Assembly: GCA_963843145.1 (NCBI GenBank)
Contig: CAWJJC010000027.1
Coordinates: forward strand, 384,001 to 448,000
Direction: 5' to 3'
From: an uncultured delta proteobacterium
GTDB lineage: Bacteria; Desulfobacterota; RBG-13-43-22
DNA: 64,000 bases
Shown here: positions 15,235 through 39,478 of the stretch, piece after piece
Layout of the letters: each line of letters opens with the position of its first letter
Position numbering within the stretch: the first letter of the stretch is position 1
Notes under the pieces: model-generated
The model's database searches: none
What the model was told of the DNA's origin: nothing
What the model saw: only the letters and a program-made list of their open reading frames with translations
Translations under genes and position numbers: made by a program

Positions 15235-15938
15235 CCTTTGCCCCCTAAATCCCCGCGTTTCTGAATCAACCGCAACGCGAAATTGATCAGCAGGGAGATG
15301 GTCAGCAGAATAATCCCCAGGGCCAAGGCCAGCTCGAAGTTCCCTTTGTCGGTTTCCAGGGCGATAGTGGTGGTCATGACCCGGGTATAGCCGGCGATAT
15401 TCCCGCCCACCATCAGGATCGCGCCTACCTCGGCCATTACACGCCCGAAACCCGCGATAATCCCGGCCATGATTCCGTAGCGGGCTTCCCTGACCACTAA
15501 GATCGCCTCCTGGGAAGGGGTGGCGCCCAGGGTCTTGGCTGCCTGCCGGATCACTCCGGGGACATTGACAATAGCCGAGTGGCAGAGGGCGCTGACGATG
15601 GGAAAGGCCAGGATGGTCTGGGCAATCACCATCGCTGAGGGAGTGTAGAGCAGCCCCAGGAACCCGAAAGGTCCTCTGCGGGATAAAAGCAGATAAACAA
15701 AAAGGCCCACCACCACCGGCGGCAGGCCCATAAAGGTATTCAAGAGGTTGATCATCAGGCCCCGGCCGAAAAACCGTTTCAGCCCCAACAAGGCTGCCAA
15801 GGGGAGCCCCAGCAGCGTGGCGATCAGCAAAGCCGATCCGGAGACCCTGAGGGACATCATGATGATCCGCAAGAGTTCCCGGTCCATCGCTCCGATCAGG
15901 GTCAAGGCCGCCGAAAAACTATTAAGAATGGAGTCCAC
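15231..15938 (-). CDS. tupB: Tungstate ABC transporter permease
   Basis: MGLPPVVVGL, GFGRVMAEVGA, GGNIAGYTRVMTTTIALET. Confidence 0.92.
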   Translation of the reverse strand: MDSILNSFSAALTLIGAMDRELLRIIMMSLRVSGSALLIATLLGLPLAALLGLKRFFGRGLMINLLNTFMGLPPVVVGLFVYLLLSRRGPFGFLGLLYTPSAMVIAQTILAFPIVSALCHSAIVNVPGVIRQAAKTLGATPSQEAILVVREARYGIMAGIIAGFGRVMAEVGAILMVGGNIAGYTRVMTTTIALETDKGNFELALALGIILLTISLLINFALRLIQKRGDLGGKG

Positions 15939-15997
15939 TCTTGCCTATCACCCTGAACAGAGACCCGACATTGAAAAAAGAGAGATCCGAAAAATTC

Positions 15998-16837
15998 CTA
16001 TTTCGTTTGACCGGCGTTGGGGAAGAAGAGCACGTTCCCGAACTTGTCCTTATAGGAGCCGATGGCCTGCTGTCCTTCTTTGGAGATCATCCAGTTGACA
16101 AATTCCATCGCTTCTTTAAATTTGGTGTGCTTATATTTTTCGGGGTTGACCGCCATGACGCCATACTGATTGAAGAGCGCCGGGTCCCCCTCCAGGACGA
16201 TGGTCATTTCCAGTTTGTCTTTGTCTTTGGTGGCCAGCCAGGTGCCCCGGTCGGTCAGCGTATAGCCCTTCTTTTCATTGGCGATCCGCTGCGTCTTTTC
16301 CATCCCCTGTCCGACCTCCAGGTACCAGGCCTGGCCTTTGGGGTCCAAGCCCACCTTTTTCCAGAGGGAAAGCTCCTTGGTGTTGGTCCCGGATTTATCC
16401 CCCCGGGAGACAAACGGTCCTTTGCCGGCGGCAATTTTGGAGAAGGCCTCGGTGGCCTGCTTCAACCCCTTTATTTTCAAAGGGTCATCAGCCGGTCCGA
16501 TGAGGACAAAATCGTTGTACATGACGTCATGCCGGTTGACGAAATAGCCTTCGGCCACCGCCTTGAGCTCCAATTCCTTGGCGTGAACCAGGACCACGTC
16601 GCAGTCGCCCCGTTTGCCGATTTCAATGGCCGCTCCGGTACCCACGGCTACCACATCGACTTTGATCCCGGTCTTTTTCTCAAACAAGGGCAGCAGGTAG
16701 TCGAACAATCCGGAATTCTGGGTGCTGGTGGTCGAGGCGCAACGGATGCGCGTCTGGGCCTGGGCGGTACCATTCAGCAGCAGGAAGCCCATCATAAAAA
16801 CAGATAAAAACAAAATCATCGCTTTTCTCATCTTCAT
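15998..16837 (-). CDS. tupA: Tungstate ABC transporter substrate-binding protein
   Basis: Signal peptide; STTSTQNSGL, VGTGAA, MYNDFV, FVSRGDKSGT, YTLTDRGT. Confidence 0.92.
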   Translation of the reverse strand: MKMRKAMILFLSVFMMGFLLLNGTAQAQTRIRCASTTSTQNSGLFDYLLPLFEKKTGIKVDVVAVGTGAAIEIGKRGDCDVVLVHAKELELKAVAEGYFVNRHDVMYNDFVLIGPADDPLKIKGLKQATEAFSKIAAGKGPFVSRGDKSGTNTKELSLWKKVGLDPKGQAWYLEVGQGMEKTQRIANEKKGYTLTDRGTWLATKDKDKLEMTIVLEGDPALFNQYGVMAVNPEKYKHTKFKEAMEFVNWMISKEGQQAIGSYKDKFGNVLFFPNAGQTK

Positions 16838-16940
16838 ACCTCCTTAATCAGAAGACCCTTTGACCGAAGAAAATACCAAGGCGGGGAGTGGGATTACCCG
16901 GCCTTGGCATTTTTTCAGGAAATAGTAAACAGAACCCGGG

Positions 16941-18377
16941 CTACCAGACTATTTCAAAGCGGGTCAGAATGGCCTGTTCATTATCCATTTTTTTACCGCT
17001 GACGGTGATGGGGTCATCGAACTTGGTATAATAATAATTGACCATGAAGCGCAGCATGTCGTTCGGGTACCAGGTCAGACCCAGGGTATAGCCGGAGGCT
17101 TTGGCGGTGTATTTTTTGGAATCGGCAAATCCCATTTTCAGGATGTCCGGGTCCATATCGATCCATTCATATCGGCCCAGGAGCTGGAAGGCGCCGCAAT
17201 ATCCTGACTTCCCTAAGGCAAAGGGTTTTTTGGGGGTGATTTGCCCCGGCAGCCCGTTCCGCCAGGGTTCCTCTTCACCGGTCAGAAACCATCCCAGGGA
17301 AGCGTAGCCGGCCGTGTTGTCAAAACTGGCCTTTGTCTTGTTGTAGGTCAAATCATTCAACTGCATTTTCATATATTCGGACTTCAGGGAAACCGGACCG
17401 ACCATCCAGGCCAGTTCACCTCCGAAACGGTTGCGGCTGCCGTCCTGGGTCACCGTATCATTAAACTGCAGGAAGGTCGTTCCGCTTTCGGTTTTGTATT
17501 GATACCGCCACCAGTCTGTTGCCGGGGCGGTGGTATGCTGGATCCCGGTGGTGAAGGCCCCGCCAATATGGAAGCCTTTTAAGAACTTATTGTCCACCTT
17601 GGAGAAGGGCGCCAGGGTAACCCGTCCGGCCACGTCTTTCTGGTCGTCCACATCGCTGGAATTGATCTTCCGGCCGTTGAAGACCCCCAACTGATAATAG
17701 AGGAAATCTTTGCTGATATTGCCGTGAAGCATGACGCCCAAGTCCCTAGAGGGAGCAAAATTGTCGGACAGGGAGCGTTCCACGAAATCGATCCAGTTGT
17801 CCGAACTCAATTCTTCCAGACTGAAAGGAACCTTGTATTGCCCGAACATCAATTGGGCATAAGGAAAGTAATTGATATTCAAAAAGGCATCGTTGAGCTG
17901 GGCGTTCCCCTGGCCCATCTCGTATTCCACGCTGAAATTATAGTGTTTATAGAAAGTACCGATGGCGGCCAGTCGAGCGCGCCGGATCAGGAAGGTGTCG
18001 TTGTTGGGATTGTCGTTCAGAAACTGTCGGTAGTCGGCATGCAGCCGCCCGGAAAGTCGGAGCTTATTGTCGCCGTCCTCCGACTCCATGGTAAAACCCT
18101 TCTTGAAATCCACCTTGGCATTCCCCGCCGGGGCCTTTTCTTCCTTGACCTTCTTCTCCAGAGCCCGCAGCCGGGTCAATTCCGCCTCTTCGGCCTCGGC
18201 CTGCTTCTTCATTTCCTGGTACTTTTCCGGTGTAACCATCTTGCTGTTCAGCAGAATTTCCAGGATCTGTTCATTGAGCGATTTGGCCTGGGCCCCTTGG
18301 GGCAGAGCCCAGATGAAAATTCCGGTCAGCAATAAGAATCCAATAGACCTGCCAAAGGTTCGTCCTTTCACCCTCAT
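16941..18377 (-). CDS. OprO/OprP-family oxyanion-selective porin
   Basis: Signal peptide, coiled N-terminus, FLIRRARL, GQYKVPFSLEEL, SRDLGVM, terminal aromatic residue. Confidence 0.85.
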   Translation of the reverse strand: MRVKGRTFGRSIGFLLLTGIFIWALPQGAQAKSLNEQILEILLNSKMVTPEKYQEMKKQAEAEEAELTRLRALEKKVKEEKAPAGNAKVDFKKGFTMESEDGDNKLRLSGRLHADYRQFLNDNPNNDTFLIRRARLAAIGTFYKHYNFSVEYEMGQGNAQLNDAFLNINYFPYAQLMFGQYKVPFSLEELSSDNWIDFVERSLSDNFAPSRDLGVMLHGNISKDFLYYQLGVFNGRKINSSDVDDQKDVAGRVTLAPFSKVDNKFLKGFHIGGAFTTGIQHTTAPATDWWRYQYKTESGTTFLQFNDTVTQDGSRNRFGGELAWMVGPVSLKSEYMKMQLNDLTYNKTKASFDNTAGYASLGWFLTGEEEPWRNGLPGQITPKKPFALGKSGYCGAFQLLGRYEWIDMDPDILKMGFADSKKYTAKASGYTLGLTWYPNDMLRFMVNYYYTKFDDPITVSGKKMDNEQAILTRFEIVW

Positions 18378-18402
18378 GTCTCCCTCCTTTTATGTAATTT
18401 CT

Positions 18403-18436
18403 TTGCCATATATGTCAACAAAGGCATATCTGTCAA
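18403..18436 (-). promoter_or_regulatory. Palindromic operator overlapping TTGACA -35 upstream of porin-tupABC
   Basis: TTGCCATATATGT-CAACAAAG-GCATATCTGTCAA; same design as 29282-29315. Confidence 0.7.
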
Positions 18437-18536
18437 GTTATTTTTCGATTTCCAGGAATATGAGGGGACTGGATCTTGGGGAGTCGTTGGGAGGAAGGGA
18501 AAAGCAAGGTCAGATGAGCAACTCCGACCGAGGAAG

Positions 18537-18900
18537 TTATAAAATCAGGAGTATCCGGAATCGTCTCCCCGGGAGAAAAACCGGGCCTTCCGCAAGGCAA
18601 TCCGCCGGAAGGCTTCCTTGGCGGTGGCGGAGCCGGCGGTTTCGGCCGGGTCGCCGAGGCGGCCCCACCAAGTAAAATTCATTATACCCGATTAAAGTCC
18701 TTTGGGTGGCCCAGCCTTCCTGAACGGCCTTCTCTTCCCCTTCCGGGGCATGGACCATGATGACATCCACCTTCTTGTTCTTCAGGAGACGCAACGACTC
18801 ACCGGAACCGGCTTTGATCCAGCAAAGGGAGGCCCCCGCCTCTGGCAAAGGCCTCCGGACTTTCAACCCTAATTCACCGGGGCTTCCGGTGGCTACGAAA
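18537..18900 (-). pseudogene. Truncated TupA-like binding protein fragment
   Basis: KAGSGESL..VDVIMVHAPEGE..IGYNEFYLVGP, then frame breaks; no signal peptide or C-terminus. Confidence 0.65.
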
Positions 18901-19021
18901 ATACGATTGCCGGAGCAAATTCCTTAGTACAGACCGCTTGTGCCAATGGCTGAGGCCAAGCGGTAGCCAGGATCAGAAATACCCAAAGCGTTAGACCGCC
19001 TATTCGACGCATTTCCCGCTA

Positions 19022-19801
19022 TCACTTGCCTTTGATAACCGAGGGTATGGCCTCGGGATAAAACAGGTTGGTCCCATGCTTTTTGTAGCCGGCAATCAGC
19101 TTTTGTCCTTCCACGGAGGTGACGAAGGCGATAAATTCCATGGCCGCCAGGTAATTGGCTTGGGGAAATTTGTCCGGACAAACCGCCATAACGCTGTAAT
19201 AATTCAACAGCAAAGGATCTCCCTTGAAAAGGATCTTCAAACTCAGCTTTGGTTCATATTTCAGAAAAGTCCCCATATCGGTCAAAGTGTAGGCCCCCTG
19301 ACGATCCGCCGCGATCAGGGTATCGGCCATATTGGCCCCGGCCTCCTGATACCAGCTCTTGCCTTTCGGAGTCAGCCCGGCATCGTCCCAGAGATCCAAC
19401 TCCCGGATGTTGGTCCCTGAATCATCCCCCCGAGAGACGAAAAGGCTGCCTTTCTCCGCAATCTCTTCCAAGGCTTCAATGACGGTGCGGGCCTTTTTCA
19501 CCTTGGCCGGGTCCTTGGCCGGTCCAACAATGGCAAACTCATTGTACATCACTTCCCGGCGATTGACTCCATACCCTTCGGCAATGAATTTTTCTTCCCG
19601 GAAAGGATCATGGACAAAAAGTACATCGGCTTCTCCTTTTTTAGCCAGCCGAATAGCCTTGCCCGTACCGACGGAAATAACCTCCACCTTGACCTGGTAT
19701 TTTGAAAATTTCTCATAGGCCGGAATCAAAATGTCAAAAAGACCTGAGTTCTGGGTACTGGTGGTTGAGGCAATGATCAGCTTGTTTTTCGCTTTGGCCA
19801 T
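19022..19801 (-). CDS. TupA-like tungstate-binding protein without signal peptide
   Basis: STTSTQNSGL at residue 12, FVSRGDDSGT, YTLTDMGT; AAGGAG RBS directly before MAKAK. Confidence 0.85.
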   Translation of the reverse strand: MAKAKNKLIIASTTSTQNSGLFDILIPAYEKFSKYQVKVEVISVGTGKAIRLAKKGEADVLFVHDPFREEKFIAEGYGVNRREVMYNEFAIVGPAKDPAKVKKARTVIEALEEIAEKGSLFVSRGDDSGTNIRELDLWDDAGLTPKGKSWYQEAGANMADTLIAADRQGAYTLTDMGTFLKYEPKLSLKILFKGDPLLLNYYSVMAVCPDKFPQANYLAAMEFIAFVTSVEGQKLIAGYKKHGTNLFYPEAIPSVIKGK

Positions 19802-19889
19802 GGGGATCTCCTTTTTTGTAGGTTAAGTTAATAATATTAATCTTTTTAAATTAATACTTTAACTTGGATTGTCAATGGTCCCCCGGTGG

Positions 19890-20813
19890 TTATTTCCCCC
19901 CCGGGTCATCCCCGTGTTGTTGTTTGATGAACTTCTGGTGAGTGGCCGTGCCCTCTTTTCGGGCCTGCCCGACGCTCAGGAACTTGCCCACCATGAGCAT
20001 GTGCATTTCCGGAGGCAAATTCTGATAATCCACCTCTTTTAGAAACCGGCCGACCGTGCTGCGGATGACTTGCTGTTTCTCCCGGTCGCCGGCATAGGTG
20101 ACTACCGCCACCGGGGTGTCCTGAGGATAGTTCTTCTTAAGCTGGCTGAACAGTTGGGGGTAATCCAGCTTCATGGTATAGAAAACCATGCTGGTTTTAT
20201 GGGTCATCAATTCCTGGTTTTTGTCCTGCCGGCCGGGCCAATCGGTCATGGTCAGGATGACCGAACTGGTGTCCCAGCCATAGGGCGGACTCATCTTGAC
20301 CGCAGCGCTGGAGGCCTGAAAGGCCCCTATCCCGGGAATGATCTCGGAAGGGAAATCCTTGGGCAACATCTCCAGATAAAAGGTGGTTCCATACATCATG
20401 GGGTCCCCCCACTGGAGGGCCGCTACTTTTTTCCCCTGGGCCACCGCTTCTTTGATCTTGCCGATCATCGACTTTCGGGCTTCGGCGTTCCGGATGGCCT
20501 TGGCCCTGGCCTCGGGGTCTTTTAAGGTCTGCGGATCGATCCCATAATACACCCGGGCGACATGTCCCAGGTACCAGACCGGTTTGTCGCCGATCCACTG
20601 TTTCCAAGCCTCCAGATCCGGCCGGTCTTCCAGGATGAAGATATCGGCCTGCTTAACCGTCTCGAGCCCCCGGAGGGTAATCAAATCCGGGCTGCTGCCC
20701 ATGCCGACGATGTAGAATTTCCCCTGATCGGCCCAAAGAGCCGTGGGAAGGGCGATCAGGATTACCGCCCAAAGTGTTAGTAGTGCAATCCTCCAGTCCT
20801 TGGTGATGAACAT
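19890..20813 (-). CDS. Tetrapyrrole (corrin/porphyrin) methylase-family protein with signal peptide
   Basis: Hydrophobic N-terminus ending ALWA; FYIVGMG..PDLITLRG, GDPMMYG, IPGIGAF, PVAVV. Confidence 0.82.
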   Translation of the reverse strand: MFITKDWRIALLTLWAVILIALPTALWADQGKFYIVGMGSSPDLITLRGLETVKQADIFILEDRPDLEAWKQWIGDKPVWYLGHVARVYYGIDPQTLKDPEARAKAIRNAEARKSMIGKIKEAVAQGKKVAALQWGDPMMYGTTFYLEMLPKDFPSEIIPGIGAFQASSAAVKMSPPYGWDTSSVILTMTDWPGRQDKNQELMTHKTSMVFYTMKLDYPQLFSQLKKNYPQDTPVAVVTYAGDREKQQVIRSTVGRFLKEVDYQNLPPEMHMLMVGKFLSVGQARKEGTATHQKFIKQQHGDDPGGK

Positions 20814-20827
20814 AACTCGCTTCCTTT

Positions 20828-21601
20828 CTAATTTAGTCGATAGACCACTGGGATCTTGATCTGGGCCTCCACGGGTGGATGGGGGAAAGGAACGCTTTCC
20901 TTCAGGGCCTCCAGCGCACCCTGGTCCAGAACCTCGTACCCGGACCCCCTAACCACCTGGGCTTCTTTGATCGATCCGCTCAGGGTGATTACAAAGGAGA
21001 GGACCACCCGGCCCTCCCAGCCCAGACGCCGGGCTAGGGACGGATAGCTGACGTTTTTCAGAATCTTGTCCCGAATATAAGCGAATTGTTCGGCCAGGTA
21101 GCGGTTTTTGGCCTTTTCAGCGCCACCGCTTTCCAAACCCCCTTCCCCGCCGGTACCGCCCTTTCCGGAGGCCGGTCCACTGCCGGAGATCCCGGACTTC
21201 CCTGTTCCCCCGGCTGGCCCGTCTGTCTTTCCCAACCCTCCCGGCACATTCGGCAGGCCGGGCTGTTCCACGGGAACGGTCATGTCTGAAGTGGATTGAA
21301 TCCAGGTCGGGGCGGTTTCCTGGATTTTCGGTGGCGCCGGAGGGGGGAGGCGTTTGTTCTCTTCCCGGGGAACCGGGGCGGGAGCGGCCTGAGGTACTTT
21401 TTTCGATGCCGGCCGAAATGATTTTATTGGAGTGGGCTCCCGGATCTTTTGAACCGGAGCGGGAGTTGGTTTTTCCAGGTCAAAGTCGATGATCATCGGG
21501 TGATGTTTTTTTACTTCCAGCGTGCCGAGACCCAGCACCCCGGCAATCACCGCCGCGTGAATGATCAAAGAATATTGGAGCCCTCTGGCTTGCGGTTTCA
21601 T
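20828..21601 (-). CDS. tonB: Energy transducer TonB
   Basis: N-terminal TM with SxxxH, Pro-rich linker, YPSLARRLGWEGRV..SGYEVLD. Confidence 0.9.
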   Translation of the reverse strand: MKPQARGLQYSLIIHAAVIAGVLGLGTLEVKKHHPMIIDFDLEKPTPAPVQKIREPTPIKSFRPASKKVPQAAPAPVPREENKRLPPPAPPKIQETAPTWIQSTSDMTVPVEQPGLPNVPGGLGKTDGPAGGTGKSGISGSGPASGKGGTGGEGGLESGGAEKAKNRYLAEQFAYIRDKILKNVSYPSLARRLGWEGRVVLSFVITLSGSIKEAQVVRGSGYEVLDQGALEALKESVPFPHPPVEAQIKIPVVYRLN

Positions 21602-21978
21602 GGGCGTTCTTCGGTCTGGAGACTGACCCGTTTAAACTGGAGCCTTTTGACCAGATCCAGGACGTCGACGAACCCCTGCAAAGCGATCTGCCGATCTGCC
21701 CGGATCAGGATTGGGATATTCCGATTCAGCCCCTCCAGCCCCTGTTTCAAGCCATCCAGGGCCACCGCTTTGGCGTTCAGGAACAGGTCCCCCCGGCGAT
21801 TAATCTCAATGGTCTGGGTCCGCAGCATCTCCCCCTGGCTTCTAACCACCTTAGGCAGATCGAGAGGAATCATCCCGGTGGCGATAAAGGAAGAAGTGGT
21901 CAGAACGATGGTCAACAGGACCAACATGACGTCCACCAGAGGAATTACATTGATATAATCAAACTCCTTTTCTTCCAT
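21598..21978 (-). CDS. exbD: Biopolymer transporter ExbD
   Basis: INVIPLVDVMLVLL, IRADR. Confidence 0.93.
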   Translation of the reverse strand: MEEKEFDYINVIPLVDVMLVLLTIVLTTSSFIATGMIPLDLPKVVRSQGEMLRTQTIEINRRGDLFLNAKAVALDGLKQGLEGLNRNIPILIRADRQIALQGFVDVLDLVKRLQFKRVSLQTEERP

Positions 21979-22393
21979 TCAGCACATCCCAATCCAGGAG
22001 CAACACCTTAACCCGGCGAAGCAGGAAATTGTACAAGGTCACCGAGGGAATGGCCACCAGCAATCCCACGGCTGTGGCCTTCAGGGCCAGGGCCAGGCCC
22101 ACCATGATCTTGCCCGTATCCATGAACCCTTCCTGTCCGATGGTATAAAAAGTCAGCATAATCCCTAAAACGGTCCCGAGCAGGCCGATATAGGGCGCAT
22201 TGCTTCCAATGGTGGCAATCAGGTGAAGCTTTCTGGTCAGTTCCTTTTCCAGCGCGGGTTTGTTAGGGAAGTCCTCTAAGCGAAGGCGCCGAAAAACCAA
22301 GTGGCGTTCCAGGGCCACGCTCAAGGCCATGATGCTCAGCAGGATCAGGAACCCGATGATCCCGTAATCGACGGCAATTTTTAACCATTCCAT
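21959..22393 (-). CDS. exbB: TonB-system energizer ExbB (short type)
   Basis: IGSNAPYIGLLGTVLGIM, ALKATAVGLLVAIP. Confidence 0.92.
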   Translation of the reverse strand: MEWLKIAVDYGIIGFLILLSIMALSVALERHLVFRRLRLEDFPNKPALEKELTRKLHLIATIGSNAPYIGLLGTVLGIMLTFYTIGQEGFMDTGKIMVGLALALKATAVGLLVAIPSVTLYNFLLRRVKVLLLDWDVLNGRKGV

Positions 22394-22483
22394 AATGTTT
22401 TTCCAAAATAAAGGCGCCCCTCCCGTCATCTCGTTATTCTACGGAATGACGAGAGAGGGCTTTATTTATCTGCAGGGGGTTCG

Positions 22484-24554
22484 TTAAAACTTACCGGTAA
22501 GACCTGTCCAGAAAGCCCGTCCGGGACCGGGAAACCCGTATTCCGGCTCGTAGTTGATGTCAAAAATATTGTTTACCGCCACATACACTTCGAACCATTT
22601 GAGGATCGGCTGGGTAACTTTGAAGTTGGTCAGGAAATAGTCCCCGGTCTTCAGGGTCTCCAGGTTTTTGTTCTGGGGCGTTGGGAGCTGGGAAAAGGCC
22701 TCGCCGACATACAGCCCGGTCAGATCCAACTTGGTTTTAACCTGAGGGAGGACATATTGTACCCCGAGGTCCAACTTGTGCTGGGGGGAGAAGGTTACGT
22801 CGTCGGTGACCCGTCCGTCACTTTCATTCTTAGAATCGATGTAGGTGTAATCCCCCCGCAGAAGCAGCCCGTCCAGAGGATAGACCGACCCGCCCAACTC
22901 GAAACCCATCCGCTTCACGTTCCCGTAGTTTAGATAGGTGCCGAGAGTACCGGGGGCGTCGCGGGAGATCAGATCGGTGACGTCATGATAGAATAAGGCG
23001 AACTCCAATTGGCCCACCTTGCCCAGGGCCTGATCCACACCCACCGTGTAGTTGAGGCTTTTTTCCGAGGCCAGATCGGTGTTGCCGCCCTTGCTGGAGT
23101 AAAGCTGTTGCAGGGTCGGGAAGCGGGATTTGCGGGCGATGGAGCCGAAGAGCTTGGTCCCATCAACCACCTGGTAATTCAACCCAGCCATGGGATTGAA
23201 TTCGCTGGTGTTGGGCTGGGGGTTGGAGATCTGCTGCACAAAATTACCCGTTTTGGAATCCGTCACATTTTTCTGGGCCTGGGTCACATCAAACCAGTCG
23301 TAGCTGACTCCACCCACCAGAGAAAGATTTTTTACCAGCGTGAATTCGTCTTCCAGACCCCAGGATCCAGTGTAAGACTTGGACTCCGCAAAGGGCAGAT
23401 AGGCATCGTCCCGCTCCTTGTGGTTGTCCTCCTTGTAATGCAAAGACATACGCAGGTTGTTCCATTTCACCGGCTGGTAATCGACAAAATAGGAGCCGCC
23501 CATGATATAATCCTCATAGCGGCTGATGGCGATCTGTTTGGTCAGGGCCGAATCGGCATAAGAAACGTAATCGTCGTTATGATGGTGATAAAAGAGCTTG
23601 GCCTTCATATTCCACTGGTCGTTCAACCGGTGCCTCCCGTCCAGGTCGACCCCCCAATCCTCATAATTCTGGATCCGGACGTTGGCCGTAGAAAAGGCCG
23701 GACGGTTAAGAAACACCGAGTTAGCATCGGTGGAGGCCGGCGCCCCTTTGTCTTTGTTCAGGTAATGGAAATTGACGAAAAATTCTGAATCCTTTAAGGG
23801 GGTCGCCCCGAATTTGGCCCAGAAATTTTTGCTGGTGATGTCCGAATTGTCCCGTTTTCCCCCGTCTTCAAAAACGACGGTGCTTTTCCCGCCCGGGCTA
23901 CGGGTCAGAGTCCCTTTTCTGGGCTGATAATCGTCCGAGAGATTCCAGCCATCCGAGTTCAGGTAGCTGGCATTCAGCCACCAGTTCCAGATCCCTTTCT
24001 TCATGCCGTGGGAGGCCGAAAGGCGGTAGGTGTTGTTCTCGCTGAATTCCACCGTGGCGCTGGTAAAAGGCTTTTCCGAGGGTTGTTTGGTGATAATGTT
24101 GACCACCCCGGCCAGGGCATTGGCCCCGTAGAGGACCGAGGCGCCACCCTTGATGACCTCGATGCGGGCCACGTTGTCGGTGGGAATCTGATTCAGGTCC
24201 AGTTTCCCGAAATTGGTTTCGTAATAGGGGACCCCGTCGATCAGGATCAGGGCCTGGGACTGATCGAAATTTCGAATCGAGACATTGGGTTCGTTTTTTC
24301 GACCGGTGGTGACCTTGACGCCCGGGGCATAACTCAGGGCCTCGGCCACGGTTTTGCTGTTGGTGGCCGCAATGTCTTCGGCGGTGACCTCGGTGATCAC
24401 CGTCGTTTCCCGGACCTTGTCCCCCGAGCACCACGATCTCACCCAGGTTGTAGGTCTCGAATTCCTTGGCCTTCTTTCCCTCGGCCCAGACCAGTCCGGT
24501 CCCCAAGAAAAAGAACAGCGTTAACAGTACACCCATCTTCTCTCTCTTCCTCAT
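22484..24554 (-). CDS. TonB-dependent receptor (apparent +1 frameshift near 24430)
   Basis: Signal peptide and LGEIVV in one frame; plug (LIDGVP, RIEVIKGGASVLYGANALAGVVNIIT) and barrel ending GKF in another. Confidence 0.88.
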
Positions 24555-24564
24555 CTTCTCCTCC

Positions 24565-25887
24565 TTATATTTTATTTGCCGGGTTCTTTAATTTTCGGGC
24601 CCAAAAAAAATAAAACGGCAACCCCGATAAGGCGATGATCAGCCCCAACAGCGAGGTCTGGGGCTTCTCCCAGGAAATCTGCCAGGCAATCCAACCGTAG
24701 GCTCCCACAAACACCAGCGGCGTCAGGGGATAACCCCAGGTCCGGTAAGGTCGGAATAGGGCCGGCCTCCTGGCCCGAAGAGTCAAGTGCGCCAGACCCG
24801 TCGCCATCGAGGACACCAGCATGATGAGCACCACATAGCTCAAAAGCTGGTCGAAGCTTCCCCAAAGGACCATACCGGCCGCCAGCAGCCCCTGGGTCAA
24901 AATCGATCCGTAGGGCGTCCGGTGCCGGGGATGAAGCTTTTTCAAAAAGGACCAAAATAGGCCGTCCTCGGCCATGGCGTAAAAAATCCGAGAGCAGGCC
25001 AGGAGCGTGGCATTGATCCCGGAGGCGATGGCCAGTACGATCACCAGGGAGATCAGTCCGGCGTAAGGGCCGCTGAACAAACTTTCCGCCGCCAGTTGGC
25101 CTACATTGACCACCCCCTGAAGCTTCAAGATCGGGACGGCATACAGGTAGGTAATGTTCATTAAGGCATACAATACAGTTACGATCAGGGTTCCCCAGAG
25201 CAGCGATCGGGGAACGTTTTTCTCCGGGTCCCTGACTTCACTGCCCACATACGCCGAGGCGAACCAGCCGCTGTAGGTAAAAATGACGGCGATCATCGGC
25301 GAGGCGAAGAGTTTGGTCCAGGATAGGGGCCCCCCCGTATTCCCTGAAAAATGCTGCCAGCTCCCCTTTCCCCATAGTATTCCTCCCGAGACGAACAGAC
25401 CGATGAGCAACAGGGCGCCCAGGGTAAGAATATCCTGGGTAGTGCTACCCCAGCGTATCCCGCGGTAATTGATCCAGGTAAACAAGGCGATCACCGCCAG
25501 GGCCAGGGCCTTTTCCGAACCCGTGCCGACCCCCGGCAGAAACGGTTTCAGGTAACTGACCAGCGCCAGGGTCAAGGCGGCCATCGAACCCGGAATAATG
25601 ATCCAAAAGTTGACCCAGCCCAGCAAAAATCCGGCCCAGGACCCGTAGGCCTCCTTGAGGAACTGGTAGTCCCCGCCGGCTCGGGGAAACAAACCGGCCA
25701 GTTCGGCATAGGTCAGGGCCCCGCAAAGCGTGAGCACCCCCCCGATGATCCAGATGCCGACAAACCAGAAAGGCTGGGGCAGCTCACCGGCCAGAAAACC
25801 GCTGGTGGTGAAGATGCCGGCGCCCACCACGTTGCCCACCACCAGCAGAATGGCATCCGAAAGTTTAAGACTTCGATTGAGCGGCAA
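24565..25887 (-). CDS. APC-family amino acid permease
   Basis: GNVVGAGIF, YAEL..FPRAGGDY, YSGW, RPYRTWGYP; about 12 hydrophobic segments. Confidence 0.92.
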   Translation of the reverse strand: MPLNRSLKLSDAILLVVGNVVGAGIFTTSGFLAGELPQPFWFVGIWIIGGVLTLCGALTYAELAGLFPRAGGDYQFLKEAYGSWAGFLLGWVNFWIIIPGSMAALTLALVSYLKPFLPGVGTGSEKALALAVIALFTWINYRGIRWGSTTQDILTLGALLLIGLFVSGGILWGKGSWQHFSGNTGGPLSWTKLFASPMIAVIFTYSGWFASAYVGSEVRDPEKNVPRSLLWGTLIVTVLYALMNITYLYAVPILKLQGVVNVGQLAAESLFSGPYAGLISLVIVLAIASGINATLLACSRIFYAMAEDGLFWSFLKKLHPRHRTPYGSILTQGLLAAGMVLWGSFDQLLSYVVLIMLVSSMATGLAHLTLRARRPALFRPYRTWGYPLTPLVFVGAYGWIAWQISWEKPQTSLLGLIIALSGLPFYFFWARKLKNPANKI

Positions 25888-25907
25888 AGATCGGTTTCCA
25901 GTTCAGG

Positions 25908-27693
25908 TTAATGATGGCGGTCCAACGTCTGAGACTCCAGGCAAGCCCCGATGTAAATCATGCCCAGCCACTTTTCTTTTTCGTCCCAGGCGATGGACAG
26001 GGCCTTATCCAGCGTGGTCTTCACCAGACGTTCGCTGTCGGCAAAACCCACCCGGTAGGCAAAATAAACCGGGGTGGAAGGCGGGTAATAGCCGCCCAAC
26101 AGATCCACCAGACTCTTCAGTTCCTTCAATCCCATGAACAGGGCCAGGGTGTCTCCCTTCTCAACCGCCGCCTTAAGCAACGCCGGGTTATCTTTCAACG
26201 CCCAGGAGGTGGATAGGACAATCGACCCTCCCCGGCAGGCCAGTTCCTTCCCGATGAGCGCGTTGGCGGCGTTGAAGGCGCTGATCCCCGGGATGAACTC
26301 CTTTTCCTGATCACCCAATCGGGCGGCGATCTCGCGCAGACTCCCATAGATAAAGGGATCCCCGTATTCCAGCAGGGCCACGTTCTTCCCCCGCCGGAGT
26401 TCCGCCTGGATCAGTTCCACTGCTTCCACGATCTTTTTTTCCAGCAGGGCCTTTTTTTCCTCCGGTGACAGCTTGCCCAGCTCCTTTCCATAAATGGGCT
26501 CCGGCATTAAATACTTAAAGGGATCAAACAGGACCGGGCGTCCTCCGATGTAGGCGGCCAGCCGTTTTTTCAGATCGTCGCTGCAGACGAAGACATCGAC
26601 CCGCCCCAGGGCCGATAAGGCCTGCTGGGTTAACAGGTCCGGATCGGCGCAACCCACACTGATCAGGTAGGCCTTGGGCTTCCGGATCAGGTTGATGACC
26701 TCGATCCGAGAAACGGCCATCACCCAGCGGTCGGCCGACAAGTCATCGGGAATCACCAGCTTGAACTTGCCGCTCGTCCTCCTGGAGGGGCTTTCCTTCT
26801 TTCCGGTCGGCGATGATGATCCGCCGGCCCAGGGGATTGAGCACCAGCTCCCCCATGGAAATCAGGGATCGGTACCCGTCCGGGGCCGAAATGACAACGG
26901 CCGAATCCAGGTCCTGGGTTGCCCCGGCCCGGGTGAGCAGGTCCGTTAGGGGGGTCCCTTCGAAACGAAACAAACCGTGATAACCCCTCCCCTCGCCTGC
27001 GACCTTGCCCATCACTTCCAGTCGGGGATAAGCCGATAAATTAGTTACGGTCAGCAGCGTTTTGCTATCCTGACCCACCGTCAGCTCGGGGGCAAAAAGC
27101 TCCTTCATCCGTTTCACCGGCATTTTGAAATGCAGGTCGACCACCTCGATACTGGCCACGTTTTCCAGGGACCGTTCGGTATAAAAATCGTTGGCCACCA
27201 CCAGCCTGGGTAAGCCCACCTTTCGCTTCAAGGGATCTTGCCAGACCCGGTAAACCTCCGGGGTGTGACAGGCGGCGCAGTCTCTGTGGGGCATGACGGG
27301 CTCCGCCTGGAAGGCCACGATCAATTCCGCCGGATTGCGGTAAAAAACTTCCCCCCAGGAAAGGACGGTCTCGCGGCCCTCGCGATTGCGGACCACGATA
27401 GCCAGGTCATCCGGTTTGCCAAACGCGGATTCCCCCTTCTGCACCACCGCGGTCTCCAGCAACTCCCTCAACGGCACCCCGCGGTAGTTGAAAACACCGT
27501 GAAAGGTTTTGTCCCGGGTCAGTTCATTCAGACGCACTGAAACCGATTGAAAGCGAGCCAGGTCGGAGAGGCTGAATTGAAGCGGTTGTTTGACGGCGCC
27601 CATGATGTGCAGGCTTTCCAAGGTACCGGCCTGCACCCCGGAACCGATCAACAGGAGACTCAGACCATAAACGACCCATTTCATCTTCTTCAT
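25908..27693 (-). CDS. Exported protein: two molybdopterin-oxidoreductase-like domains with a CxxCH motif, probably fused to a tetrapyrrole methylase domain (frameshift near 26775)
   Basis: Signal peptide; YRGVPLRELL, CAACH, FEGTPLTDLL, APDGY; GKFKLVIPDD..DRWV..VSRIEV continues in the next frame into VGCADPDLLT, GDPFIYG, IPGISAFNAA. Confidence 0.75.
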
Positions 27694-27711
27694 AAAACAA
27701 TACTCCTTTTA

Positions 27712-28470
27712 TTAAACGGATTTTCGCTGCGGAAAATACCAGACCAGGGCCAGAATCAGGACAATGAACCCCCAGAAAATGAAGGGCCGGCCGGGGTCCC
27801 GTTTGATAACCACCTTCAACTCTTGACCCGGCTGGGCCTTTTTGGCCAAGTCCAGATGAAAGGTATATCCCTTCCAAGAGACCGGTTGCATGATCTGGAG
27901 CTCCCGGGATTCCAGGCTGCCGGCGGCGTCAAGCAGCAGAACCGCCCGGCATTGCTGTACCATCCCCCGGATAGGCTCCGGCCCCGGATAGCGCTGACAG
28001 TCTTGATTGATCACCCGGACCATCCCGGCGCCCGGAAGACGGATACCGCTTTCCGGGTTGTTCGGAATGACCCCATTGAAGCCCACGACCAGGCTGATCC
28101 AGTGCCCGGAAAGGATGACCAGGAAACATAAATGGATCAAGGAAGGGCTGAGTCGGATGGAAAAAGTTCGGGCCCCGATCTGTCTCCTTAAAGGCCATAA
28201 ATGGATCAGTCGTTTCAAAGCGCAGACCACGGTATTGATGCCCAAAAAGAACAGCAGGAGAAAAAGACTCCCCAGCCACCAGAGTTGGTTGACCTGGGAA
28301 CGACCCACTTGCTGCACCCACTCTTGAATCAACATCTGGTTCAGCGAATTGAAGAAAGTAAAATTAAACTTCAAATAATAGGAACCGATCCCCAGGTTGG
28401 CGGAAATCAACAACAGCAACCAGAAGTTGACCTTGACCTCGCCGCAGAAATCCCAAATCTTTTTAAGCAT
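27712..28470 (-). CDS. ResB/CcsB-like cytochrome c biogenesis membrane protein
   Basis: LLFFLGINTVVC, LIHLCFLVILSGH, KRDPG before the final TM; adjacent to ccsA. Confidence 0.72.
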   Translation of the reverse strand: MLKKIWDFCGEVKVNFWLLLLISANLGIGSYYLKFNFTFFNSLNQMLIQEWVQQVGRSQVNQLWWLGSLFLLLFFLGINTVVCALKRLIHLWPLRRQIGARTFSIRLSPSLIHLCFLVILSGHWISLVVGFNGVIPNNPESGIRLPGAGMVRVINQDCQRYPGPEPIRGMVQQCRAVLLLDAAGSLESRELQIMQPVSWKGYTFHLDLAKKAQPGQELKVVIKRDPGRPFIFWGFIVLILALVWYFPQRKSV

Positions 28471-28474
28471 TCCT

Positions 28475-29233
28475 CTATCCCCCGATCCGTGGCGGTAGGT
28501 TGGTTTCGGTCAAGAACCCTAAGTAGCCGTAAAGCAGGATCATTGCCGGCCCGACCAGCGAGAAGCGGGCCTCGGTCCGCAGATTCCAGACCGGAAGATA
28601 GCGAAGATGCAGCAAAGCCGCATAAAAACACCAGAGTGAAGCGGATTGCAGGTGACGGGCGCTCCAATGTAAGGGGGTGGCCCAACCCAGATAGGCCCAG
28701 TAGGCACCCACCACCTGGGCGCCGCTGAAAAAGATAAACCCCCAGACCAGGAAGGAATGGAAAAGACGGGCCGTTTCATCCTGTCGCAAGTAGATCAGGC
28801 CCAACATGCTCCCCGCGATAAAACAGGCGTGGCTGAAAACCTCCAGCATAAAGAACAGCCAAGAAAAAAAGGTCTGGGTTTTCGGATTGGGCGGAACCAC
28901 CCCCAGGGGAAAAAGAAAAGCCAATACCGAGAAGACCACCAGGGGGATCAGTAGCCCGCCGGCGAGAGAGGCTTTCCCGGGAATGAATCTGAAGCCCAAA
29001 GCCAACGCCGCCAAGCACCAGGGAAGAAAAAAACTCTCTTCAAAAAGGGCATAGGGGGACCAAATCCCGACAAGCCCTCCCCGGTTGATCAGAAAGATGG
29101 TGTGTCCCAGGAAACCGAGCACCAGGCAGACGAAGGGAATGTATCTCCGCCGGAATAGCCAGGCGACCATTGAAGCGGCATAAAAACCCGTTACGAGCGA
29201 AAAGCCGTTATTTATTGCTATCGAGATCATCAA
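28475..29233 (-). CDS. ccsA: Cytochrome c assembly protein, CcsA/ResC type
   Basis: GAYWAYLGWATPLHWS tryptophan-rich WWD-like motif, conserved His (FSHA, LLHLR). Confidence 0.8.
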   Translation of the reverse strand: MMISIAINNGFSLVTGFYAASMVAWLFRRRYIPFVCLVLGFLGHTIFLINRGGLVGIWSPYALFEESFFLPWCLAALALGFRFIPGKASLAGGLLIPLVVFSVLAFLFPLGVVPPNPKTQTFFSWLFFMLEVFSHACFIAGSMLGLIYLRQDETARLFHSFLVWGFIFFSGAQVVGAYWAYLGWATPLHWSARHLQSASLWCFYAALLHLRYLPVWNLRTEARFSLVGPAMILLYGYLGFLTETNLPPRIGG

Positions 29234-29281
29234 TTAAAATTTTTTTCGGAAACGGGATGAGCGAGAAGAACTATGTCTTTT

Positions 29282-29315
29282 TTGACATGTATGCCAAGAC
29301 AAGCATATATGTCAA
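29282..29315 (-). promoter_or_regulatory. Palindromic operator overlapping a sigma70-type promoter of the ccsA-led operon
   Basis: TTGACATGTATGC-CAAGACAA-GCATATATGTCAA, 13-bp arms with 1 mismatch. Confidence 0.72.
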
Positions 29316-29348
29316 GAATATTTTCCGGGGATCACTAAAAAATTAATT

Positions 29349-31553
29349 TTACTGAAATCGAGCTTGGAGGGCCTTATAGTTCCAGCCGAAGGAAACCAGC
29401 AGCTCCTCCCCGGCCTTGAGGAGCAGTTCGAGGTATTTTTTTTGGTCGTAGGGTTCTTGGCCGCTCAGGAAGGGGGCGGGGACCACCCGCTCCTCGGGCC
29501 GGGTCGCCCCGCTGTCTCGCAGGAGAAAGGACACCCGTTGGCCGGGCTGGAGGGTCAGCCCCTCGGCCTCCAGTTGCTGGAGGGTCAGGGCCGACTGGGT
29601 AGCCACCCGGTACTGGTCCAGGGGACGGCTGGATCGGCGGGTGATGATCAGTTCCGTGGGGTGGACCCGTCCGTCTTTCAGCAGTCCGGCGTATTCGCCC
29701 AGACGGGTCAGCATTTCCGGCACCTGTTTTTCCAGAGCTTGCCGGTCTCCGGCCCGGGCCATCCAGCCCAGAAGTTCCTCCTGCACCTCCCGGACGAAGC
29801 GGGGGACGTCCTTGCGGCAGCGGGCGATCCCCCGGGTCTTGAGGGTCCCGTTTTGAAAGGCCCCGAAGTAGCGGTTGGCCACCGGACGGCGCGGCTGGAC
29901 CTTGGAAGGCAGGAAGACGATCCAATGATAAATTCCCTCCAGACTTATGGGAACCTGAGTCTTTCGCTCGATTTCCTCAAGCAAAATCTTAAGGTCCACT
30001 TCCGTCAGCCGCTCCCCCTGGAGCCAGAGGGAATCGGTCAGCCCGTGGAGGACCTGGTAGCCCCGGGCCTCGGCGCACTCCTTGGCGATCAGCAGCTTGT
30101 CCCGGCCGAAGGCGGTGATGGCCTCGTGGGCCTCGATCCGACCGAAGCGGGCGTTCTTGTAGCCCAGGTAGCCGAAGCAGGTGACCAGCACCCACTTCAA
30201 CCCTTTCTGCAGGGCCTGATAAACGGCCATCCGCGGATGCCCGGCCTTGATCCGGGCCTTGAGCTCGGTCCGCAGCTTCAGGATCGGCTCCAATGTTTCA
30301 GGCACCAGTCCCCGACGGCGCCGACAAATATTGTAGCCCGCCTCCGGGACCACCGGTTCCGGGCAGCAGGAACATAGCATGGTTTCGGGCGAGATATTGT
30401 GCCGGACCATGATGGTGGGATACATGGAGGCATAGTCGATCTCGGCCACCCGCTCTCGGAGTCCGATCGGCGGCTGGAAGACCAGCCCTCCCTTGTCCGC
30501 AACCAGGAGGTCCCAGGCGGTCTTGAAGTCCTCGGGCCGCCCCTTTTTCCAGGGGATCAGGATCCCTTTCTGTACCGCCCGGTCGAGCTGCATGGAGGTG
30601 ATGGCCGTGCCCGGCGAGGTCCGGGCCAGGGTCTGGACCGGGATTTTGGTCAGTCGGGCCAGGGAAATGGTTCCCTCCAGGCCGCACTCGCCTTGGGTGA
30701 AGAAAAAGGAATTGTTCCGGTCGATGTGGAAGCGTCCGAAGAGGGGGAAGGCCGCGCCCTGGTAGGCGATCTGACCGTAAGTGAAGTAAGAGCGCCCTTC
30801 CCCCACCCGCCGCCGCGCCGGAGGGTGGGGGTCCCGATCCAGGACCAAAGGAATTCTTTCCTTCTCCGCCCAGCGCCAGAGACAGGGAAAGATGCGGCCG
30901 TCCCCCTGCTGGGAAAGGAGGCAGTCCGGATCCAGACGGGCGATCAGCCGGTTGAACTCGGTCAGGAACTCCGCGGGAGTCAGGCCGTCCAGTTCGAAGA
31001 CCCGGTCCTCGTAAATGACCCGCAGGCTGTTGCCCCGGTCCAAAGGAATCTGGGGGTGTTTCGCCAGGGTGAGCTCGACAACTTTCAGAGAGGGGATCGG
31101 AGCATCCGGGTCCCAGGGAGAATGGAGGACCTTGAGGCCCCGGAGCTGATTGCGCTCCCATTCGAACTCGCAGAAGGCCAGGGGGAAGACGCCCCGCTCG
31201 TAGGCGTAGTACTGGGGGACGGCCAAATCGCAGTTATAAAAGGTGATCCCGCCGGCCCAGTCGGCCAGGCGCCGCTGGATCTCCGGAAGCTTCTGCAGGG
31301 CCCGGACCTCCAGCTCAAAAACCGGCATTGCCTTGCCGCTCCAGAATTCGGTCCGCTTAGTCCAGCCCGTGCGCCGCAGATACCGACCGAGCCCTCTTTC
31401 CAGGGCGCTCAGAGCGGACCGGGTCCCCTGGGCGTAAAAGCGGTAGCCGAAATAGTCGGTCAGGCAGAGCATCTCCCCGCCCGTTAATCGAAACCAGAGG
31501 ACCATCACGTCCTCCCGCACATAGAGGTCGAAGAGCCAGCCTTTGGCGATCAT
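29349..31553 (-). CDS. Family B DNA polymerase, PolB2 (archaeal Dpo2-like) type
   Basis: Motif A EIDYASMYPTIM, motif B QKGLKWVLVTCFGYLGY, motif C HGLTDS (first Asp of YGDTDS replaced); degenerate exonuclease region. Confidence 0.88.
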   Translation of the reverse strand: MIAKGWLFDLYVREDVMVLWFRLTGGEMLCLTDYFGYRFYAQGTRSALSALERGLGRYLRRTGWTKRTEFWSGKAMPVFELEVRALQKLPEIQRRLADWAGGITFYNCDLAVPQYYAYERGVFPLAFCEFEWERNQLRGLKVLHSPWDPDAPIPSLKVVELTLAKHPQIPLDRGNSLRVIYEDRVFELDGLTPAEFLTEFNRLIARLDPDCLLSQQGDGRIFPCLWRWAEKERIPLVLDRDPHPPARRRVGEGRSYFTYGQIAYQGAAFPLFGRFHIDRNNSFFFTQGECGLEGTISLARLTKIPVQTLARTSPGTAITSMQLDRAVQKGILIPWKKGRPEDFKTAWDLLVADKGGLVFQPPIGLRERVAEIDYASMYPTIMVRHNISPETMLCSCCPEPVVPEAGYNICRRRRGLVPETLEPILKLRTELKARIKAGHPRMAVYQALQKGLKWVLVTCFGYLGYKNARFGRIEAHEAITAFGRDKLLIAKECAEARGYQVLHGLTDSLWLQGERLTEVDLKILLEEIERKTQVPISLEGIYHWIVFLPSKVQPRRPVANRYFGAFQNGTLKTRGIARCRKDVPRFVREVQEELLGWMARAGDRQALEKQVPEMLTRLGEYAGLLKDGRVHPTELIITRRSSRPLDQYRVATQSALTLQQLEAEGLTLQPGQRVSFLLRDSGATRPEERVVPAPFLSGQEPYDQKKYLELLLKAGEELLVSFGWNYKALQARFQ

Positions 31554-31681
31554 GGGATATTTTTCGGGACTTATCAATTTGTTGCCAATCGGAAGTTAAT
31601 CTTCCAATGAACAAGGATAGGTTTCGCGACGTCTGATGTATTTAAAAGGTTTTGGGTGGACCTGAAGGATCATAAGACCGG

Positions 31682-39436: not shown

Positions 39437-39478
39437 GGATTTTATGACGGCTTCTACTTGGAGAGTATGATAGTTCTA

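Follow-up and report, generated by a model that had tools for sequence, protein, structure and literature searches.

What does a bacterium do with methylase-like proteins that carry export signals and are encoded, together with a TonB-dependent receptor, directly upstream of genes resembling those of a tungstate importer? The question is raised by a 64,000-nt stretch of DNA from an uncultured delta proteobacterium (GTDB lineage Bacteria; Desulfobacterota; RBG-13-43-22), taken from GenBank assembly GCA_963843145.1, contig CAWJJC010000027.1, forward-strand positions 384,001 to 448,000; we refer to the whole stretch as the window and give all features in its coordinates. A single minus-strand string of genes, running from 29233 to 19890, encodes a CcsA-like protein, a mini ResB-like membrane protein, an exported fusion protein that ends in a CbiF-like methylase domain, an APC permease, the receptor, ExbB, ExbD, TonB and a second exported CbiF-like protein, which we call TPM2. 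The reading that we favor, at a probability of roughly 45%, is that these genes respond to tungsten (or molybdenum) and form a TonB-dependent acquisition system whose periplasmic binding and redox parts are undescribed and which feeds TupABC.

We infer the direction of transport, the cargo and the parts played by the heme, the permease and any S-adenosylmethionine (SAM) along the following lines. Metal limitation would relieve a repressor at a paired operator, and the operon and the porin-tupABC genes would be switched on together. The receptor, powered by its own ExbB-ExbD-TonB set, would import scarce or bulky tungsten- or molybdenum-bearing species that the porin route cannot supply. The fusion protein, exported by the Sec route, would receive one c-type heme from a dedicated CcsA-like/mini-ResB-like pair, and its SUOX/PruR-fold domains and CbiF-like domain would, together with TPM2, bind the cargo and process it by redox chemistry. 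Tungstate would then pass to TupA and enter through TupBC, and the inner membrane would be crossed, by way of the LAT-type permease, by an organic part resembling an amino acid or by a counter-substrate.

The link to the tup genes begins at the promoter. A paired operator-like site (29282-29315, minus strand), composed of the half-sites TTGACATATATGC and GCATACATGTCAA separated by an 8-nt spacer, overlaps a sigma-70-like promoter (TTGGCA-16-CATAGT, 29297 to 29270) in front of the operon, and a second copy (18403-18436, minus strand) lies 5' of porin-tupABC. Half-sites of the type TTGACAT[A/G]TATGC were matched 5 times, against 0.66 expected. A scan of the 5.35-Mb genome for the paired arrangement, allowing up to 4 mismatches in all and a spacing of 17-21, recovered it at two places only, the promoters of the operon and of porin-tupABC. 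The common palindrome described in an earlier note on this DNA is real. Single half-sites occur elsewhere in the genome five times, against ~6 expected by chance. Similar sites stand before the first operon gene in seven other loci (L002, L005, L013, L015, L049, L055 and L058); two of these, L002 and L058, have one in front of the porin as well. Through this common putative operator, porin-tupABC is predicted to be co-regulated with the operon.

The tup region begins 88 nt beyond TPM2, directly downstream of the operon as had been claimed, and comprises a TupA-like binding protein (19022-19801), a porin of the O_P type (16941-18377) and a TupA/TupB/TupC-like ABC importer (14584-16837), all on the minus strand. 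The Tup families are the best NCBIfam matches, so the earlier name tupABC holds at that level, but all scores lie under the equivalog cut-offs (TupA, 254.8 bits for the tupABC copy and 227.2 bits for the TupA-like protein against 400; TupB, 166.9 against 320; TupC, 119.4 against 400). The TupA-like protein, which starts MAKAKNKLIIASTTSTQNSG behind a ribosome-binding site 6 nt before the ATG, has no signal peptide; this signal-less form is conserved after TPM2 or TonB in L002, L008 (two copies) and L058, and the exported TupA proteins of the same loci have signal peptides. It is presumably a cytoplasmic paralogue and may act as a cytoplasmic tungstate binder or sensor. Between it and the porin lies the remnant of a third, exported TupA-like gene (~18554-19011, minus strand), in which a signal peptide is followed by a stop; beyond it, two frames align with residues 20-121 and 114-158 of the orthologue from L002 (287 aa), the C-terminal half being missing. 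This remnant looks like real decay, unlike the two frameshifts in the operon that are treated below.

A tie to the tup genes stronger than adjacency is supported by gene fusions and by regulators as well as by the common operator. L048 encodes Oxidored_molyb, TP_methylase and TupA-type PBP_like_2 domains in a single 847-aa open reading frame (ORF); the lipoprotein P0241 carries a SUOX-like domain followed by two TupA domains; and P0259 is a fusion of TupA and FmdE, a family that recurs in the neighborhoods. Regulators that combine a helix-turn-helix (HTH) with a PBP_like domain are encoded at 10 of 36 loci with the fusion gene and, in the HTH_3+PBP_like form, at 9 of 47 loci with TPM2 (both sets are described below). 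The PBP_like domain of these regulators matches the C-terminal domain of a MoeA-fusion 'molybdopterin biosynthesis protein' with 182-202 bits. Tungstate/molybdate-sensing regulators with a PBP_like domain include the TunR family, on which no open paper was found. The genome itself encodes ten proteins of the aldehyde ferredoxin oxidoreductase (AOR) family (AFOR_N), one MoaC and two MoeA, which we take as a sign of tungsten demand. To our knowledge, established routes of tungsten and molybdenum uptake are of the porin/ABC kind only (Tup, Wtp, Mod). The arrangement found here resembles the TupABC system in its fused or adjacent TupA-type proteins, its regulators and its operator, but a TonB branch and methylase- or SUOX-like helpers are undescribed in the literature that we searched.

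We examined the neighborhoods of the fusion gene in a locus scan that used one genome per species and gave 79 loci, 64 of them with the fusion. All 64 come from metagenome-assembled genomes (MAGs) of Thermodesulfobacteriota (Smithella, Syntrophorhabdus, Desulfatiglandales, Desulfarculus, Geobacteraceae and others), Nitrospirota and Spirochaetota. The distribution is patchy: when 401 genomes were sampled from the phylum to which the window belongs, 40 had a match at E<=1e-40, and these represent 34 of 254 genera. Thirty-six fusion loci are flanked by at least 6 kb on both sides, and the counts from this set are lower bounds, because fragmented genes are missed. The receptor is found at 26 of these loci, the APC permease, directly after the fusion gene, at 22, and exbB at 17; tupA, tupA-like or tupB genes occur at 16 and a tup gene or PBP_like regulator at 18. 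A CcsA-like gene is present at 12 loci, the ResB-like gene co-occurs with it (12/36), and TPM2 is encoded at 6. Conservation of the neighborhood in other genomes, which the earlier note had proposed to look for, is therefore found, and it extends across phyla.

A split form of the system, from other phyla, was recognized in a metagenome set of 47 TPM2 loci of at least 5 kb, where the gene order is receptor, a 180-200-aa exported SUOX-like protein, and TPM2. The small SUOX-like protein matches both SUOX domains of the fusion (hhalign probabilities 96.9 and 96.1). Among these loci the receptor is found at 16, the small SUOX-like protein at 13, a ModB-like permease at 7 and ModA-like binding proteins at 6. 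In some genomes the N-terminal part and the methylase part of the fusion are encoded by separate adjacent genes. We also observed stand-alone double SUOX-like/heme proteins of ~340 aa, without a methylase domain, in Spirochaetota (L030, L044, L045, L046 and L059) and in G001, G111, G152 and others; these adjoin a CcsA/ResB-like pair and a receptor.

The fusion protein (25908-27693, minus strand) consists of a signal peptide, a first SUOX/PruR-fold domain with the CAACH heme-c motif, a second SUOX-fold domain and the CbiF-like domain, which has a class III methylase fold. In the assembly it is divided between an N-half ORF (26743-27693), with the signal peptide, PF00174 in two stretches (43.4 bits) and the CAACH, and a C-half ORF (25908-26756) that holds TP_methylase in a shifted frame (PF00590, 131.4 bits, cut-off 27.8). 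Its N-half is matched by 406 database proteins of 554-2000 aa; among the matches listed (120), the proteins are 569-607 aa long, carry PF00174 and PF00590, and bear source names such as 'precorrin-4 methylase', 'SAM-dependent methyltransferase' or 'molybdopterin-dependent oxidoreductase'. Neither the fusion nor the small SUOX-like protein is named by an NCBIfam model. The CxxCH is invariant in all 114 aligned fusions and its cysteines are the only conserved ones of the N-half; the GYHG histidine, the DGYR motif (in SUOX-like domain 2), GDP and C485 are invariant as well, and C347, at the SAM-loop position, and C583 are nearly so (P0001 numbering). The invariant H239 is a candidate for the distal heme ligand.

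Structure predictions for the fusion are of good mean confidence by AlphaFold2 (AF2) predicted local distance difference test (pLDDT 86 for an 83%-identical relative and 84 for the N-half from the window). The N-half forms two SUOX-fold domains, which match SorA (Z 14.7, 138 residues aligned, root-mean-square deviation [rmsd] 2.5), YedY (Z 11.7) and, over model residues 23-185, PruR (7kos, 7kou, 7rkb; Z 12.8, rmsd 2.6, 122 of 146 residues, Foldseek TMt 0.62-0.68). An ESM Atlas search with the N-half returned solely clusters named 'Oxidored_molyb domain-containing'. At the sequence level the profile of domain 1 has weak matches only in the PDB (YedY, E 0.06), and in that weak alignment the Mo-ligating Cys of the YedY RMRC motif coincides with a variable column of non-Cys residues (in the window, R60).

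Export was called with a hydrophobicity heuristic of our own and not with SignalP. By this measure Sec-type N-termini are present in 111 of 115 fusion homologues that carry the anchor motif, with a Tat-type RRx## motif in 3 of the 115, and in 102 of 110 TPM2 homologues, with an RR motif in 1 of the 110; the signal peptides that had been claimed for both methylase proteins are thus present and are predicted for most members of their families as well. A motif for covalent heme c entails export through Sec, with maturation in the periplasm afterward. Given the Sec-like N-termini and this motif, we place the fusion in the periplasm without molybdenum cofactor (Moco). Given the lack of both a Mo-ligating Cys and a Tat-type signal, we assign the two N-terminal domains as PruR-like, Moco-less SUOX folds and not as molybdoenzyme domains. 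The earlier description of two molybdopterin-like domains with CAACH stands as to the fold, the duplication and the motif.

PruR, known from Agrobacterium and further Proteobacteria, is a SUOX-fold protein without Moco that is exported to the periplasm, where it binds free pterins (PMC11194511). It shares with the domains described here their export, their size of ~140 residues and the lack of a Mo-ligating Cys; unlike PruR, the fusion has the domain in duplicate, carries a covalent heme motif and is joined to a methylase fold. No DcpA-type partner was seen, and no GGDEF/EAL partner was found in any neighborhood cluster.

This likeness could suggest a different cargo from the one we favor. The system could salvage pterin-dithiolene cofactor: the receptor would import free or peptide-bound tungsto- or molybdopterin, dinucleotide forms included, from dead cells, the SUOX/PruR pockets would hold the pterins and the nucleoside pocket of the methylase fold the nucleotide, and the heme would oxidize the dithiolene, releasing the oxyanion to TupA. 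The two PruR-like, pterin-type domains (Z 12.8 over 122 residues, with PruR binding free pterins in the periplasm, PMC11194511) speak for such a pathway. So do the adenosyl group bound by relatives of the methylase fold, the pairing of one SUOX-like protein with one TPM2 in the split systems, and the link to TupA and tungsten/molybdenum-type regulators, which serves this account as well as the one we favor. TonB-dependent receptors handle cargoes of such size. We nevertheless consider cofactor salvage unlikely: with MoaC and two MoeA, the organism is equipped to make the cofactor itself, a compound that is moreover labile, the APC permease is left without a role, and the residues through which PruR contacts pterins (the PW motif, N102, Y104 and W160) could not be aligned, the profile of domain 2 having 0 matches among PDB sequences. 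We also know of no bacterial uptake of Moco. If true, it would be the first pathway in bacteria for scavenging a tungsten or molybdenum cofactor and the first extracytoplasmic task of a class III methylase fold.

The methylase-like half of the fusion has the CbiF/CobM fold (Foldseek E ~1e-12 to the solved structures 4e16, 3nei and 2cbf), and TPM2 (19890-20813, minus strand; 307 aa; PF00590, 121.2 bits), whose signal peptide ends LWA|DQ, is CbiF-like as well. At E<=1e-10 the TPM2 family counts 584 or more proteins, which with few exceptions are 300-308 aa long, and it extends into MAGs of Acidobacteria, Gemmatimonadota and Armatimonadota. Twenty-four aligned members are 56-82% identical to the window protein, with 56-60% identity across phyla, and all have signal-peptide-like N-termini, most of them ending in an AxA-type site, except P0232, whose start is cut off. 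Fusion and TPM2 resemble the precorrin-4 C11-methyltransferases CbiF/CobM (PF00590) in fold, in hidden Markov model scores of 121-131 bits and in the GDP and PGxxAF motifs; they differ in being exported, in an altered SAM-loop GPGD, in lying outside a cbi cluster and in forming clades of their own. The NCBIfam cobM_cbiF equivalog gives 80-83 bits for both proteins against a cut-off of 260.

In the SAM loop, CbiF has GAGPGDPDLIT, the TPM2 of the window GMGS-SPDLIT, the TPM2 family GMG[ST][AS]PD and the fusion [GS][VM]GC[AG]D with a near-invariant Cys. Compared with GxGPGD, the GxG is kept and the P and G are replaced in both families, the D also in TPM2. The loop is thus partly changed and not destroyed, and a loss of SAM binding cannot be claimed from it. 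The genome holds six other TP_methylase genes, four of them clustered on C20 (152.5-156.2 kb, cbi-type). In the methylase-domain tree, the fusion domain, TPM2 and a type from cable bacteria form supported clades apart from these six (support for the exported clades 98/97 and 100/100; TPM2, 100/100). The deep branches of this tree are unresolved, and we claim neither a single origin of the three exported clades nor a sister relationship to CbiF. In the third type (L071-L079, from cable bacteria and Desulfobacterales MAGs), tandem CbiF-like domains are contained in one exported protein, with genes for an APC permease, a receptor, DUF4198 and FmdE-like proteins as neighbors; a study of nickel homeostasis in cable bacteria (PMC11247825) makes no mention, in the portion consulted, of this tandem architecture.

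The conserved motifs raise the question of whether these proteins are true periplasmic methyltransferases, in which case the exported CbiF-like domains would use SAM delivered by a LAT-type exchanger (SAM out, S-adenosylhomocysteine [SAH] or an amino acid in) to methylate an imported tetrapyrrole or a reduced oxyanion of the As, Se or Te type. The domains keep the motifs GxG, GDP.[IM]YG and PG[IV][SG]AF along with the high identity across phyla. The permease (24565-25887, minus strand; 440 aa; PF13520, 197.6 bits) is of the LAT/SLC7 type, its closest solved chains being y+LAT1 (2e-53) and the bacterial putative amino acid/polyamine transporter 6f2g (1e-51). Many members of this group are exchangers, and in yeast and E. 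coli, SAM or S-methylmethionine is transported by permeases of the APC family; the permease gene is also translationally close to the fusion gene in the 22 of 36 loci that have it. We judge this account rather unlikely, since an APC-type protein cluster occurs in 4 of the 47 TPM2 loci, all four of the fusion type, leaving the split systems mostly without a permease, since neither family retains the P and G of GPGD, and since no metK, SAH-hydrolase or nucleosidase gene recurs near the loci. We know of no periplasmic SAM pool.

The TonB-dependent components of the operon were all identified by profile: the receptor (22484-24554, minus strand; plug 99.9 bits, barrel 143.1 bits), ExbB (21959-22429, minus strand; TIGR02805, 160.4 bits, above its cut-off of 135; MotA_ExbB, 102.5 bits), ExbD (21598-21978, minus strand; PF02472, 77.8 bits) and TonB (20828-21601, minus strand; TonB_C, 65.9 bits). 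The receptor reached no NCBIfam equivalog, all receptor models staying far under their cut-offs. Among solved structures it comes closest to BtuB, with just the plug aligned (9e-21); the TonB-B12 (BtuB) equivalog gives 138 bits against a cut-off of 600, again over the plug only, and TonB-hemin is the sole NCBIfam model that aligns end to end (165 bits). The genome has a second exbB-exbD-tonB set at G000:C20:593600-605600 (ExbB/ExbD 80-83% and TonB 47% identical), which adjoins a receptor with a 38%-identical plug region and has a ModB/TupB-like permease nearby; it may be a paralogous uptake locus.

Such receptor matches could suggest scavenging of a tetrapyrrole, either corrinoid or heme, with BtuB-like import, CbiF-like proteins as periplasmic binders and the CcsA/ResB-like pair handling heme. 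Besides the BtuB and TonB-hemin matches, this account has in its favor that the closest fold is that of CbiF, whose substrate is a corrin precursor, and that an exported CbiK paralogue of Desulfovibrio binds heme. The setting argues against it: the receptor models are far under their cut-offs, a canonical cbi cluster lies elsewhere, the window contains no btuFCD or cbi salvage genes and the locus no heme ABC genes, and the recurrent partners are TupA/ModA-type proteins and tungsten/molybdenum-type regulators instead of B12 or heme genes. An Rfam search of the whole window at gathering thresholds gave 0 matches, so cobalamin and Moco riboswitches are absent. We therefore hold tetrapyrrole scavenging to be improbable. 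A cobalamin uptake or salvage locus in the usual sense, the alternative named in the earlier note, was rejected on the BtuB score, the lack of a riboswitch and the lack of btuFCD and cbi genes nearby; the cbi-type methylases are on C20.

The first two genes of the operon would supply the heme. The CcsA-like protein (28475-29233, minus strand; 252 aa) matches PF01578 with about 40.5-40.8 bits (cut-off 29.9) and TIGR03144 with 37 bits against a cut-off of 188, compared with 190 and 159 bits for housekeeping CcsA copies elsewhere in the genome. The mini ResB-like protein (27712-28470, minus strand; also 252 aa) has transmembrane segments and a short outer loop; PF05140 is not significant (E 0.34), no Pfam family matches, and the protein is named by position and topology. 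A housekeeping ResB of 462 aa (271 bits) is encoded at C28 next to the 190-bit CcsA. Because the CcsA-like protein scores low, its partner is not recognized as ResB and a normal pair exists elsewhere, we regard the two as a divergent extra pair, which would serve the adjoining protein with its single CxxCH. Of the names ccsA and resB given earlier, the first is backed by a family match and the second lacks profile support. Dedicated system II isoforms for special cytochromes are known from Wolinella (NrfI and CcsA1). The operon is similar to cytochrome c biogenesis system II in placing a second, divergent CcsA-type gene and a ResB-shaped protein beside a CxxCH protein; it differs in that the heme motif is an ordinary CxxCH and the ResB-like partner is half-sized and not recognized by Pfam.

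A c-type heme next to a SUOX fold, which is typical of oxyanion redox enzymes, also brings to mind redox detoxification of a toxic oxyanion (selenite, tellurite, arsenate or chromate), regulated by an oxyanion sensor and involving no nutrient uptake. Multiheme c7-like cytochromes at 7 of the 47 TPM2 loci and the weak likeness of the porin to the selenite/tellurite porin ExtI (41 bits against a cut-off of 150) point in the same direction. However, the SUOX domains lack the Mo-ligating Cys and could not be supplied with Moco by way of Sec, there is little reason to spend TonB power on importing a poison, and the domains are fused to TupA-type, high-affinity binding proteins, all of which make detoxification very unlikely.

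Several observations weigh against the tungsten or molybdenum acquisition system that we favor. Half of the well-flanked loci (18/36) have neither a tup gene nor a PBP_like regulator in the flank, and no metallophore biosynthesis genes that would point to a cargo recur in the neighborhoods. The tup operon already has its own porin, which makes it less obvious why a TonB route would be needed too. The retained methylase motifs and the 56-60% identity across phyla are no less compatible with an enzyme than with a passive binder. No RNA run was found to contain the stretch. Because TupA, TupB and TupC are under their equivalog cut-offs, tungstate cannot be distinguished here from molybdate or a related oxyanion. 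Finally, no regulator was found in the genome: the sole PBP_like match (C17:194227-194916) was rejected as the operator-binding protein, as it lies inside a 640-aa, MoeA-containing open frame. The fusion from L008 (residues 26-584) folded together with the exported TupA of the same genome gave a score of 0.00 which, with no controls, weighs neither way on binding. The earlier interpretation, that a methylase fold may be used outside the cytoplasm on a TonB-imported ligand, is nonetheless supported in part, by export, the CxxCH, conservation, the non-B12 context and the tie to tup; its mechanism (a ligand bound by the methylase fold, redox release by the heme and an organic part taken up by the permease) is a proposal, and the change in the SAM loop is only partial.

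Two of the operon genes are broken in the assembly. The main ORF of the receptor spans 22484-24442, with the signal peptide in an ORF of another frame (23898-24554); the earlier note had spoken of a single frameshift, which is indeed present in the fusion gene of the assembly, and had overlooked this second break. We aligned public short-read contigs to window positions 24300-26900. For the fusion, a contig with 100% identity across 178 nt is missing a base at 26776 and yields a single ORF of 590-odd aa, the halves joining at ...PLQED|GKFKLVIP... in alignment with intact homologues. For the receptor, a ~98%-identical contig (run X4) without one base at 24429 restores the frame, the surplus base being placed around 24421-24431. 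Each correction rests on one contig, at a depth of 2.7-3.3. As the surplus bases do not appear in these contigs, the two genes are probably intact, and decay of the operon into a pseudogene cluster was rejected for both frameshifts. The window has other overlapping ORF pairs, and on this thin evidence both breaks are read as consensus errors or strain variants. The pairs in question (34435/34793, 36400/36849 and 38521/38885) lie on the same strand (34435-35671, 36400-37349 and 38521-39637), look like genes split by a single base and fit an error-prone consensus in the assembly.

The remaining layout is compact. Neighboring genes of the operon are separated by 4-54 nt or have overlapping ORFs, and ORF and profile evidence bears out the tight packing, gene order, strand and domains first described. 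A gene for a family B DNA polymerase (29349-31577, minus strand; 742 aa, PF00136) lies directly upstream, in the same position relative to the operon as in L001 and L058. L058 is the nearest relative (L058:8300-21700 against window 14500-31600): the polymerase, ccsA, exbBD, TPM2, tupA-like, porin and tupA genes are 91-97% identical between the two, but identity is only 52-82% across the ResB-like gene, the fusion and a portion of the permease, which suggests that recombination has replaced the central cassette. Many matches in L058 are split, suggesting frameshift errors there too. Elsewhere in the window we noted a LexA gene (41579-42184) and three adjoining genes with Pterin_bind, B12-binding and URO-D-like domains (46670-49541, minus strand), the make-up of a corrinoid-dependent methyl transfer system of the demethylase type, next to a branched-chain-type ABC importer.

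Compared with TonB-dependent loci for chelates and vitamins (BtuB-BtuFCD, CntO-pseudopaline and siderophore systems), the operon has in common a receptor with ExbB-ExbD-TonB, periplasmic and inner-membrane parts in one operon and apparent metal-responsive repression. Unlike them, it includes no periplasmic binding protein of the usual cluster-A type and no ABC importer; their place is taken by heme proteins of CbiF-like and SUOX-like make-up that are exported, and by a secondary permease of the LAT type. In the open full-text literature we found neither exported tetrapyrrole-methylase-like proteins nor a TonB-dependent route for tungsten, and the composition matches no system described there, as the earlier note had said. 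On the favored reading, the locus would be a form of TonB-dependent uptake of trace metals in which two groups of proteins play parts without characterized precedent.

Anaerobes with AOR-, formate dehydrogenase- and benzoyl-CoA-reductase-type enzymes need trace amounts of tungsten or molybdenum. If the proposed reading is true, a widespread TonB-powered branch of tungsten and molybdenum uptake, equipped with periplasmic machinery of its own, would change the view of how these metals limit life in sediments, aquifers, peat and digesters, and it would provide a first function for two large groups of proteins that are mis-annotated as 'precorrin-4 methylase' and 'molybdopterin-dependent oxidoreductase'.

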